Origin: Patescibacteria group bacterium
GTDB lineage: Bacteria > Patescibacteriota > Patescibacteriia > UBA9934
DNA length: 64,000 nucleotides
Direction: 5' to 3'
NCBI GenBank assembly: GCA_041660165.1
Contig: JBAZWW010000005.1
Span: 16,191 to 80,190 of the forward strand
Made by a program: the position numbers and the translations under genes. Position 1 is the stretch's first letter. Each line of letters starts with the position of its first letter. Of the stretch, positions 51,304 to 56,787 are shown piece after piece. The notes under the pieces are model-generated. The model had not been told where the DNA came from, made no database searches, and saw nothing but the letters and a program-made list of their open reading frames with translations.

Positions 51304-52497
51304 ATGTTCAATGTTGTAGCAAAAAATGGGAGGGCGCGGGCGGGGGTACTGAAGACGGCTCATGGGGAGATTAAGACGCCGGTCTTCATGCCCATTGCTA
51401 CAGCGGGGGCTGTTAAAACCATGACGGGGGATGAGGTGAAGGAGCTCGGTGCCCAGATCATCCTTGGTAACACGTACCATTTGCTATTACGGCCGGGCCC
51501 GGAGCTGTTAAAGGAATTTGGGGGACTGCATGGTTTTATGAAATGGGACGGGCCAATTTTGACGGACTCTGGCGGGTATCAAGTTTTTAGCTTGTCGAAG
51601 ATAAATAAAACTGACGAGGAGGGCGTAACCTTTCAGTCGCACATTGACGGTCACACCGTGCGCTTGACGCCAGCTAGTTCAATTGAGACGCAACAAGCCA
51701 TTGGGGCGGACATTTTGATGCAGTTTGATGACGTGGCCGCTGGCACCTCGACGAGGGAAAGATATGTTGAGGCGATGGAACGCTCGTTGCGGTGGGCGAA
51801 GATGTCTAAAGACGCGTTCGACCAATCAGATCCCTCCTCACGTCGGGATGACAATGCTCAACGTCGGGATGACAATGCTCGTCCGGCATCGAAGTTGTTC
51901 GGGATTGTGCAGGGAGGCACACATGAGGATCTGCGAATGAAGTCCGTTGAGGGGCTCGTCAATATCGGATTCGATGGATACGCAATCGGTGGATTGTCTG
52001 TTGGTGAGTCGCGCGAGGATGGTTTTCGAATTGCGAAGAAGGTTGCTAGCGCATTGCCGGAAGGTTCGCCAAGGTATTTTATGGGCGGGGGAATGCCGGA
52101 GGAGATCATGTTTTATGTGGCGAACGGCATAGACATGTTTGATTGTGTTTTGCCAACGCGTAACGCTCGTCATGGGCAGATGTTTTTTTGGAAGGGTAAT
52201 CCTGCCGAGTGTGTGCGCGAGGCGTTTACAAGGGCCCAGGAAGGCGCCGCAGATTTTCGCATTGCCGAGGCGTTATACGAGAAGAAACAGATTACAAATG
52301 AGGAGTTCACTTCGGACGCGAGCCTGCTCGATCCCTTTAGCGACTGTCCGAGCTCGCTCAAATACTCGAAGGCTTATGTGCGCCACTTGTTCAAGACTGA
52401 TGAAGTGCTGGGACTCAGAATAGCTACTGCTCAGAATATTAGATTCTATATAAGGATGATGGAGGAATTGCGTATGTTTATCTCCACCCCGAGGTAA
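51304..52497 (+). CDS. tgt: queuine tRNA-ribosyltransferase
   Basis: [35 protein letters not shown] motifs; contains in-frame 21-nt tandem duplication; last codons + stop lie in a repeat element. Confidence 0.85.
51840..51881 (+). repeat. tandem duplication 2 x 21 nt (ACGTCGGGATGACAATGCTCA) inside tgt
   Basis: 20/21 identity; encodes [14 protein letters not shown]. Confidence 0.7.
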
Positions 52498-52574
52498 CGA
52501 GGGGCTCGCCCGTAGGGCTACGCCCGAGGGTAGCAAGGATGCCACCAATACTGCCCCTCGTGTCCTCGGGGTGG
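52484..52574. repeat. MITE-like palindromic element with perfect 11-bp TIR CCACCCCGAGG / CCTCGGGGTGG
   Basis: inner IR CGAGGGGC/GCCCCTCG and core GCTCGCCCGTAGGGCTACGCCCGAGGG (reverse orientation of 36908 core); left TIR encodes the tgt C-terminus and stop. Confidence 0.5.
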
Positions 52575-52616
52575 GATGAGAGCGGGGTCTTGCAAAGACT
52601 GCTATAATCTCTCCGT

Positions 52617-53000
52617 ATGCCCTCAGCTGAGGCCACGTTCCGCATTGTGCGTGATCTGACGCTCGACGTAGCGTATTTTCCGTTGTGGTGGTATTCGGCG
52701 GGGTTGCTTGAAAGGTTTAAGGGGACGGGGGAGCTGATCCAGGGGAGTGCGAGGAGCTTGCAGTTGACGCTCTGGATCCGAAACATTTTCACGCCCATGT
52801 ACGGGCAATATGACTGGCAGAGCAGACTCATTAGTATTTTCATGCGGTGCGTGCAGATTATTGGCAGGTTTCTCGCGCTGGTGTTTTTTTCTGTGCTGGC
52901 GCTTGTGCTTCTTGGCTTGTACATTTTTGGGCCCATCGCGCTCGTGCTTCTTCTTGTCTATCACGGTTTTTTAAGCGGATCCGCATCATATGGAGGATAA
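52617..53000 (+). CDS. hypothetical membrane protein
   Basis: 3-4 TM; overlaps start of next gene. Confidence 0.4.
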   Translation: MPSAEATFRIVRDLTLDVAYFPLWWYSAGLLERFKGTGELIQGSARSLQLTLWIRNIFTPMYGQYDWQSRLISIFMRCVQIIGRFLALVFFSVLALVLLGLYIFGPIALVLLLVYHGFLSGSASYGG

Positions 53001-55590: not shown

Positions 55591-55670
55591 TCCCATCCCG
55601 ACGACAGGAGGGATAGTATTTCATCCGAAGATCCTCGGCTAGAATGCTACCCCTCCTCACGTCGGGGTGG
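55589..55670. repeat. inverted pair of CATCCCGACG..GGAGGGA-family repeats upstream of wecA-like gene
   Basis: GATCCCATCCCGACGACAGGAGGGAT (55589-55614) and CCCCTCCTCACGTCGGGGTGG (55650-55670) form an imperfect hairpin with ~35-nt loop. Confidence 0.45.
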
Positions 55671-56722
55671 AGACAGTGGTTATGCCGATCTGGTTCCCGT
55701 TTCCCATCATCGCAAGCTTTGTCCTGACCGCACTATTCGTCCCTGCGGTGATTGCGGTTGCGAAGCGTTTTGGGATACTCGACAAGCCAACTGGCGGACG
55801 GAAGATTCACACCTTACCAACTCCGCTCATGGGCGGGCTGGCGTTGTTCCTTGGTTTTCTCATTCCAGTAATTGTAGTTCTTTTGGCAAGCAATCATCTG
55901 ACGAGCGGGCAGATTGGACTTCGGCACTACTTCGGTTTTGCGTTGGCTGGAACGGTTCTCATGGTCGGTGGAATACTCGACGACAAATTTAATCTCTCGC
56001 CAAAGAAAAGCATTTGGTTCCCGGTGCTCGCCGCCTTGATTGCGAGTCTTGCAGGAATCGGCGTCTCGAAAATCACGAATCCGTTCGGCGGTGCCATTTT
56101 CGTCATGCCAATCGTGTCTGGCGTAATGACGTTCGTCTGGCTCCTCGTCATGTCGTATGCGACGAAGTTGCTCGATGGTGTGGACGGTTTAGCGGCGAGC
56201 GTTGGGACGACTGCCTCACTCGCAATCACGGCCCTCGCGCTTAGCAAAATGTACTTCCAGCCTGATGTAGCACTTCTTTCAATGATGTTCGCGGCTTCGT
56301 TGCTCGGCTTCTTGCTGTGGAACTTTCCACGAGCGCGAATTTTCCTTGGCGAAGGCGGGAGTACGTTTCTGGGTTTCACCCTTGGCACGCTCGCCATTAT
56401 TTCCGGGAGCAAGATGATCACGCTTCTCCTGGTCCTTGGCATCCCGTGCCTAGACATTATTCACGTAGCGTATAGGCGATACTCCGAGGGACGTTCAATT
56501 ACGTCCGGCGATAGATACCACTTTCATCATTTGCTGTTCGATGCAGGCTTGAGCGAAAGACAAGTGGTGGCGGTGTACGCGCTGTTTACCATTCCCTTTG
56601 GCAGTGCCACGCTGTTCTTTTCACATGCGTACAAGTTGTTCATTTTGCTTGGTCTCTCGATCCTCTTTCTAGTCGTTGCCAGCTTCCTGTATCATAAGCA
56701 TAATGTTGTCATCCCGACGTGA
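55667..56722 (+). CDS. glycosyltransferase family 4 (MraY/WecA-type polyprenyl-phosphate hexosamine-1-phosphate transferase)
   Basis: 10-11 TM; GILDKPTGGRKIHTLPTPLMGGLA and DGVDGLA motifs. Confidence 0.8.
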   Translation: METVVMPIWFPFPIIASFVLTALFVPAVIAVAKRFGILDKPTGGRKIHTLPTPLMGGLALFLGFLIPVIVVLLASNHLTSGQIGLRHYFGFALAGTVLMVGGILDDKFNLSPKKSIWFPVLAALIASLAGIGVSKITNPFGGAIFVMPIVSGVMTFVWLLVMSYATKLLDGVDGLAASVGTTASLAITALALSKMYFQPDVALLSMMFAASLLGFLLWNFPRARIFLGEGGSTFLGFTLGTLAIISGSKMITLLLVLGIPCLDIIHVAYRRYSEGRSITSGDRYHFHHLLFDAGLSERQVVAVYALFTIPFGSATLFFSHAYKLFILLGLSILFLVVASFLYHKHNVVIPT

Positions 56723-56787
56723 GGAGGGATCTGCATTGAACGATAGTTTCTGATGGTAATTCAGATCCCTCGCTTTGCTCGGGATGA
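56706..56787. repeat. inverted pair of the same 28-bp repeat family at wecA 3' end
   Basis: TTGTCATCCCGACGTGAGGAGGGATCTG (56706-56733, perfect reverse complement of 51827-51854) and CAGATCCCTCGCTTTGCTCGGGATGAC (56761-56787) with 27-nt spacer. Confidence 0.5.

Follow-up and report, generated by a model that had tools for sequence, protein, structure and literature searches.

The closest described relatives of the hairpin repeats considered here are the CGTC-tagged REPs (repetitive extragenic palindromes) and the oriented target hairpins of the Ssn nucleases. The repeats lie in a 64,000-nt stretch of DNA (the window) from a Patescibacteria group bacterium (GenBank contig JBAZWW010000005.1, positions 16,191 to 80,190, forward strand), part of the 229-kb contig k141_176793 of a metagenome-assembled genome (ENA ERZ27249449). 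The window contains nine units of one hairpin family, arranged as four inverted dimers (83-101 bp) at gene junctions and one solo unit in tgt. The hairpin covaries, the dimers and the solo unit are insertions in junctions and in a coding loop, respectively, and two dimers donate the stop codon and C-terminal residues to tgt and to the gene of a WecA-like protein. In other genomes near-identical units are linked to Ssn-like genes. The original prediction for this DNA had drawn attention to a perfect 28-bp inverted repeat in tgt and at the wecA 3' end. It is very probable that this pair represents two copies of an oriented hairpin repeat inserted around genes, belonging to the CGTC/TGTC-tagged REP superfamily, and not an inversion switch.

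CGTC-tagged REPs (Di Nocera, De Gregorio and Rocco 2013, PMC3733652) carry the tag CGTC, often TGTC or CCTC, and have stems of 8-9 positions that almost invariably open with A-T (then T-A), a loop of about 4-5 nt and short unpaired tails. They are mostly found as inverted dimers with spacers of 20-100 bp and adjoin the 3' ends of open reading frames (ORFs), to which they sometimes supply the stop codon. Some copies are intragenic, and the group includes Neisseria dRS3 and Rickettsia RPE-4 and RPE-6. The 3'-end bias was reported together with the argument that the repeats are transcribed. CGTC REPs are unassociated with RAYTs and 'apparently lack a dedicated transposase' (PMC3733652). The window units share with them the tag (in three units), the A-T/T-A start of the stem (in five), the unpaired tail (in the well-preserved units), the dimeric arrangement, the location at ORF 3' ends, the supply of stop codons and the occurrence of an in-frame copy. 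They differ in that a tandem GA/GA internal loop, which is conserved, breaks the stem and leaves an inner stem of only 1-2 bp, that the host is a Patescibacteria (candidate phyla radiation, CPR) genome and that the tag is degenerate in six of the nine.

SsnA, a single-domain GIY-YIG protein of about 94 aa, binds the oriented dRS3 repeat (NTS, CGTCATTCCCGCGMAVGCGGGAATCYRG) only as single-stranded DNA (ssDNA) and cuts a few nucleotides upstream of the NTS; it acts on neither the reverse strand nor duplex DNA nor RNA (Chenal et al. 2025, PMC11893778). Homologous enzymes of other bacteria cleave the motifs that flank their own genes, 71 % of the ssn homologues lie close to one or more Ssn-related motifs (SRM), and the NTS-ssnA-NTS architecture was likened to an insertion sequence (PMC11893778). 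The units described here resemble NTS and SRM in the GTC-A-T lead-in, the hairpin, the C right after the palindrome and the clustering around genes. Furthermore, units of this type bracket single-domain GIY-YIG genes of about 90-100 aa in other genomes (10 of 10).

The REPINs and their RAYTs (Bertels and Rainey 2011, PMC3116915) are similar in that two inverted short palindromes form a long, non-autonomous hairpin and a small nuclease gene is bracketed by repeats. However, the tag here is TGTC instead of GTAG, the nuclease is of the GIY-YIG type and not an HUH Y1 transposase, and no RAYT was found in the window and its flanks. A palindromic repeat at a tolerant site of a housekeeping protein, as in the variable loop of Tgt and, with a second repeat family, in the linker of an ABC-F protein, is also a feature of the Rickettsia in-frame elements, but the inserts in the window are far shorter (28 + 21 nt and 33 nt) and the host belongs to another phylum. 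Rickettsia palindromic elements are said to have been found in frame in protein genes by Ogata et al. in 2000, the classical RPE-1 reportedly being about 100-150 bp long.

Hairpin units and gene junctions of the window

The plus strand carries CAGATCCCTCCTCACGTCGGGATGACAA at 51827-51854 and its exact reverse complement at 56706-56733, the two arms being 100 % identical, inverted and 4851 nt apart. When up to three mismatches were allowed, the 28-mer had two matches in the window compared to 0.00 expected (100 shuffles). Exact matching and this expectation bear out the perfect inverted pair as it had been predicted. The first copy is inside tgt (PF01702, E 1e-129), and the second codes for the last five residues (VVIPT) and the stop codon of the WecA-like Glycos_transf_4 protein (GT4). 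Chance or an assembly artefact as the origin of the pair was rejected on the basis of the shuffle expectation and of window proteins being recorded on several contigs. That the two 28-mers are perfectly identical would be due to a recent copying event, or to gene conversion within the family, and not to a role as a dedicated inversion site.

Three degenerate copies, arranged with the 28-mer at the wecA 3' end as hairpin pairs on both sides of wecA, had also been predicted. These pairs are real (dimers D2 and D3 in Table 1, with fold z values of about -6.5 each), but the list was incomplete, as the pairs D1 and D0 were missing. Likewise, the copy in tgt had been recognized correctly, but its tandem half-duplication of 21 bp was overlooked.

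Read from the tag strand, the best-preserved units are TGTC-AT-CCC-GA-C-GTGA-G-GA-GGG-AT-CTG (the 28-mer) and TGTC-AT-CCC-GA-GC-AAA-GC-GA-GGG-AT-CTG. The stem consists of five Watson-Crick pairs, two G-A/A-G positions and one or two inner pairs, with GTGA or AAA as the loop. It opens with AT...AT in five units and with AC...G(T/C) in four, and the stems of the degenerate units are ACCCC/GGGG(T/C), or ATCCT and ACCCT, the latter two in D0. The tag TGTC is present in the solo unit and in both units of D3. In the well-preserved units the stem is followed by an ATC-TG tail, of which ATC is invariant in an alignment of 34 sequences.

In all four dimers the tag ends point outward and the spacers are 27-47 nt long. 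Each dimer folds as one long hairpin (RNA -43 to -66 kcal/mol, z -6.1 to -6.6; DNA z -5.0 to -6.4), D1 giving an RNA fold of -65.6 kcal/mol (z -6.1). Among the 110-nt sliding folds of the window three dimers rank first (D1), third (D0) and fourth. No T-tract terminator was detected at any dimer in a terminator scan, and no Rfam family matched positions 51000-57500 at E values up to 10, the only hits (SNORD23 and mir-127) being due to chance.

All four dimers begin at, or a few codons from, the stop codon of a plus-strand gene. The tgt gene ends within the left unit of D1, which contains its final codons (STPR) and its TAA stop (52495-52497), and the left unit of D3 supplies VVIPT and the TGA stop of GT4. 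Both stop codons are within the loop of the unit, and STPR and VVIPT are read in the same frame. The left unit of D2 abuts the stop codon of the Clp ATPase gene directly, and D0 is located between a DUF6938 gene and a gene block of about 6 kb. The spacer of D1 contains a copy of the second repeat family (52503-52530), and that of D3 carries the ATG (56753) used by the gene caller for DUF192. The solo unit codes for part of an extra Tgt loop peptide, DPSSRRDDN, and its partial duplication, with a period of 21 bp, keeps the reading frame.

The junctions were compared with those of four relatives, whose Tgt proteins are 70-74 % identical to that of the window and one of which (P0005) was compared by gene table alone. 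All four have the same gene order and orientation as the window, SpoU-tgt-small ORF-Clp ATPase-GT4-DUF192-CAP(-), and shorter junctions (Table 1), the GT4 stop and the DUF192 start overlapping as ATGA in three of them. No unit was found in the loci of the relatives by pattern or covariance-model search. With the same order, short junctions and no units in the relatives, the units are therefore insertions, and there has been no inversion. At the Clp/GT4 junction the empty site of relative L121 reads 'gagaaactttagctttttggtATG', i.e. gagaaactttag-ctttttggt-ATG, and the filled site of the window gagaaactttga-(83-nt dimer)-cagtggtt-ATG, the DNA of the two still being alignable. Such empty and filled junctions provide sequence-level evidence of dimer insertion, which has been raised only as a hypothesis in published work.

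In Tgt, the loop that separates ...SKDAF from LFGI varies in length and is SGHGL in the nearest relatives L143 (78 % identity) and L144. The tgt gene of the window has about 60 extra nucleotides here, in frame, consisting of the unit and its partial duplicate, and the loop exceeds that of the closest relatives by 20-21 residues. The tgt unit was found neither in 19 Tgt homologues nor in the two closest loci. According to the original prediction, peptides native to the tgt and wecA orthologues would, together with a genome-wide copy number of one or two and no structural variants, have contradicted it, and the orthologues do not have these peptides. Its suggestion of a REP/MITE-like family (MITE, miniature inverted-repeat transposable element) that tolerates in-frame coding agrees well with multi-copy hairpin dimers at junctions that are empty in relatives and with the in-frame copy in Tgt. 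Insertion of repeats accounts for the perfect inverted repeat, for three unusually long junctions and for the extra residues of Tgt and GT4.

Table 1 Hairpin units of the window and lengths of the gene junctions in the window and in the relatives
Feature	Position (strand)	Relatives	Window	Remarks
Solo unit (28-mer) in tgt	51827-51854 (-)			minus strand TTGTCATCCCGACGTGAGGAGGGATCTG; exact match; covariance model E 2e-6
Partial tandem duplication, head half of solo unit	51855-51880 (-)			51840-51859 = 51861-51880, 100 % identity
Dimer D0	43563-43591 (+), 43619-43647 (-)			covariance model E 0.012, 0.58; DNA fold z -6.4
Dimer D1, tgt 3' end	52481-52507 (+; TCTCCACCCCGAGGTAACGAGGGGC), 52551-52579 (-)			22 nt, 91 % complementary
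Dimer D2, Clp ATPase/GT4 junction	55591-55617 (+), 55647-55673 (-)			fold z -6.6
Dimer D3, GT4/DUF192 junction	56706-56733 (+; second 28-mer), 56762-56789 (-; loop GCAAAGC)			covariance model E 1e-6, 7e-9
tgt to next gene		7-24 nt	120 nt	
Clp to GT4		10-25 nt	91 nt	
GT4 to DUF192		-4 nt (ATGA overlap) to 18 nt	30 nt to called start, 78 nt to next ATG	

All nine units are located within 43.5-56.8 kb of the window. A further one follows at about 64.05 kb, and the 8.5-kb upstream flank has none. The additional one is a solo unit, AATACTATCCCTCCTAGCGTCGGGATAGG, between dnaB and ybaB at 9649-9664 of the flank L142 (about 64041-64056 in window numbering, about 50 nt past its end), and it resembles the unit at 55591-55617. 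A small CGTC-tagged hairpin, CGTCATCGAGGAAACTCGATAGA, separates the CAP-domain gene from rplU at 58474-58492 (-) and may be due to chance or a remnant of another subtype. The GC-rich hairpin region at 45440-45560 (-60 kcal/mol per 110 nt), between a convergent Fic gene and a minus-strand ORF, was considered as a family member and rejected, its sequence being unrelated.

The junction between tgt and the next gene is also long (118 nt, 1567-1684) in L143, the relative with the closest Tgt, where an AT-rich inverted repeat of another kind, gttaaaaaagttaaaaaag ... cttttcagcttttttaac, takes up the space. In L144 the same place is occupied by a classical terminator-like hairpin.

Distribution of the hairpin and its link to GIY-YIG genes

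The pattern AGATCCCTC-N6-8-CGGGATGACA (19 specified bases, for which we calculated about 13 chance matches in 596 Gb) was found in more than 119 genome stretches, and at least 11 phyla are represented. Among the hosts are Acidobacteriota, Gemmatimonadota, Bacteroidota, Rhodothermales, Alpha-, Beta- and Gammaproteobacteria, Verrucomicrobiota/Kiritimatiellia, Chloroflexota, Armatimonadota, Binatia, Fibrobacter, Clostridia and two CPR lineages (Portnoybacteria and Wolfebacteria).

In 112 pattern-defined units with 8-nt loops, the inner pair was G..C in 90, A..T in 19 and discordant in 3 (Fisher p 3e-19). The outer stems also covary (CCC/GGG, TCC/GGA, CCT/AGG, GCC/GGC and TTC/GAA), with TGTCAT, GA..GA and ATC constant, although outer-stem pairing was required by the unit finder and only the inner pair provides an unbiased test of covariation. 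The outer stems of neighbouring units were ATTCC/GGAAT, ATCCT/AGGAT, ATGCC/GGCAT, ATTTC/GAAAT and ATGTT/AACAT. In about 0.9 Mb of these loci 80 short pairs had their tags outward and 8 had them inward. A covariance model (R1) was built from 34 units, none of which came from the source genome. When it was applied to the window, the best three units gave E values of 7e-9, 1e-6 and 2e-6 and three degenerate units values of 0.012-0.58.

A metagenome scan with the window-specific unit AYCCCTCCTCACGTCGGGRTG resulted in 11 contigs, all from other organisms. Four metagenome contigs (L130, L135, L137 and L138; GC 0.48-0.52) have units with the exact loop of the window and the preceding motif CCAATACT / AATACT, and L130 has a tail-to-tail pair of such units at about 4040-4094. 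Judging from these sequences, we suggest that a subfamily with the TCTCCAC tag and ACCCC stems may be common to related uncultured bacteria.

A profile search of all ORFs of the pattern-matched loci revealed four small GIY-YIG proteins (in L016, L024, L048 and L073), each encoded between two inverted units. All four match PF01541 (best E 4.9e-16), and the best relative in the PDB is 1YWL, which belongs to UPF0213. In Flavobacterium orientale (L048) the gene is preceded by TGTCATCCCGACGCAGGAGGGATCT and followed by GGGATCCCTCCTGCGTCGGGATGACA, and apart from the loop the unit is identical to that of the window. Six further GIY-YIG genes from viral contigs (L124-L129), found independently by protein similarity, were all flanked by tagged hairpins with stems that differ by locus. 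In total, ten of the ten Ssn-like genes inspected were flanked by such units, and no other gene than GIY-YIG recurs between closely spaced inverted units elsewhere. Literature searches with the sequence of the unit, or with GIY-YIG in combination with MITE, REP or YhbQ, gave no useful match. The association with GIY-YIG genes is a rediscovery of the published Ssn link and not new. With the window, the Ssn-tied hairpin family extends into Patescibacteria.

Origin and function of the units

Four gene junctions that are otherwise very compact received MITE/REPIN-like dimers, and a single unit, with its partial duplication of 21 bp, entered the variable Tgt loop in frame. An Ssn-type nuclease, encoded in this genome or in that of an ancestor or donor, may have generated or spread the copies. 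Its predicted target would be tag-strand ssDNA with TGTCATCCCGACGTGAGGAGGGATCTG, and with the tags outward the nuclease would be expected to cut immediately beyond the two ends of a dimer, one strand at one end and the opposite strand at the other. After insertion, the hairpins may have a secondary role as structures at RNA 3' ends. The unit would most likely work like an SRM. It is possible, although we consider it rather doubtful, that the TGTCAT-stem-GA...GA-stem-ATC dimers serve a 'hairpin - ssn - hairpin' element as its active, MITE-like and non-autonomous partner. If so, a small GIY-YIG single-strand nuclease would be the engine of a pan-bacterial class of transposable elements.

Several observations weigh against a mobile, Ssn-tied repeat of this kind. 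The six units with degenerate tags have TCCC, CTCC or TTCC, and in some units A-C replaces A-T at the base of the stem, the covariance model scoring these weakly or not at all. The units are clustered, with none in the other approximately 50 kb of the window. No target-site duplication is visible at the insertions, which is compatible with single-strand mechanisms and proves nothing. When all ORFs (40 aa or longer) of the window and of the flanks L141 and L142, about 82 kb of the 229-kb contig, were searched with the GIY-YIG profile, none matched. The published SRM search sequence, HGTCWYN(0-2)YYVSBRHN(0-5)WNVSBRGN(0-2)RNCYNB (PMC11893778), has no matches in the window, L141 and L142, whereas NTS controls match. 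We found no transposition by Ssn in the papers searched, and mobilization is a hypothesis in PMC11893778 as well.

The SRM pattern fails with the window units, as with the widespread TGTCATCCCGAGCGNAGCGAGGGATCT type, at the B position, which forbids the A of the conserved GA. Because of this, and because no ssn gene is present in the approximately 82 kb, the units were filed under CGTC/TGTC-tagged REPs and not as operational SRM. The widespread subtype with the GA/GA loop, present in at least 11 phyla including CPR, escapes the published pattern, and published motif counts may thus be underestimates.

The original prediction had also proposed that the pair could mediate inversion or excision of the segment with the Clp ATPase and wecA. 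Two perfectly identical arms in inverted orientation, separated by less than 5 kb, are what recombination sites of such a programmed switch for the Clp-GT4 segment would look like. However, the segment has the same order and orientation in the four relatives, and the arms belong to a family with nine copies in the window and members in many phyla. One arm is in the middle of tgt, so that a flip would destroy this gene and truncate GT4. In the Pfam tables of all called genes of the window and flanks there is no invertase, integrase, resolvase, transposase, RAYT/Y1_Tnp or GIY-YIG. We regard the switch as extremely improbable, and the suggestion of phase variation is removed for this locus. Mobilization by a RAYT (IS200-like) Y1 transposase, for which a search had been recommended, would make the dimers REPINs, i.e. 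doublets of GTAG-type REPs. The architecture of two inverted short palindromes, a spacer of 27-47 nt and one long hairpin fits this well, and the second repeat of the window even contains GTAG. The units themselves (TGTCATCCCGA type) carry TGTC and not GTAG, the same tables contain no Y1_Tnp, the gene bracketed by, or adjoining, such units elsewhere codes for a small GIY-YIG nuclease in ten cases of ten, and CGTC REPs are not tied to RAYTs (PMC3733652). Together, these make an origin by RAYTs very improbable.

It could also be that the hairpins were primarily selected by the host as RNA structures, e.g. as 3'-end stabilizers, processing sites or attenuators. The four dimers directly follow the stop codons of plus-strand genes in a co-directional row and fold very stably as RNA (-43 to -66 kcal/mol), and the same 3'-end bias of REPs, with the argument for transcription, is reported in PMC3733652. 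On the other hand, relatives do without them at the same junctions, neither a T-tract terminator nor an Rfam match was found, and one copy is within a coding region. The conserved unpaired tag and tail and the sequence conservation across phyla argue for recognition by a protein over a generic hairpin, and Ssn does not bind RNA (PMC11893778). A primary function as RNA is thus unlikely, and repeat insertion is the reading that we prefer.

Neighbouring regions and a second repeat family

D0 is at the edge of the gene block of about 6 kb (43563-49309), which contains PPDK_N, Fic and three PEP-utilizer genes. The block is extra compared to the four relatives, in which DUF6938 is almost directly followed by SpoU. 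Between SpoU and tgt, which overlap in the relatives, the window has about 1 kb (50300-51300) with a GC content of 0.60-0.62 compared to 0.51. A minus-strand ORF of 233 aa in this stretch (50373-51074) is an orphan, matching neither Pfam nor NCBIfam. In L144 a pair of bAvd and reverse transcriptase genes (8357-9819), which looks like a diversity-generating retroelement, is located directly upstream of ABC-F, where the window has an MFS transporter gene.

The second repeat, CCCTCGGGCGTAGCCCTACGGGCGAGCC, contains GTAG and occurs in exact form at 36907-36934 (+), which is intergenic, and at 52503-52530 (-), in the spacer of the dimer at the tgt end. A variant is located inside the ABC-F gene at 34285-34320 (+). 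Exactly 33 nt, coding for LGRSPQPYGRA, are absent at this site from the closest relative L144 (88 % aa identity), and this exact gap therefore indicates a second in-frame repeat insertion.

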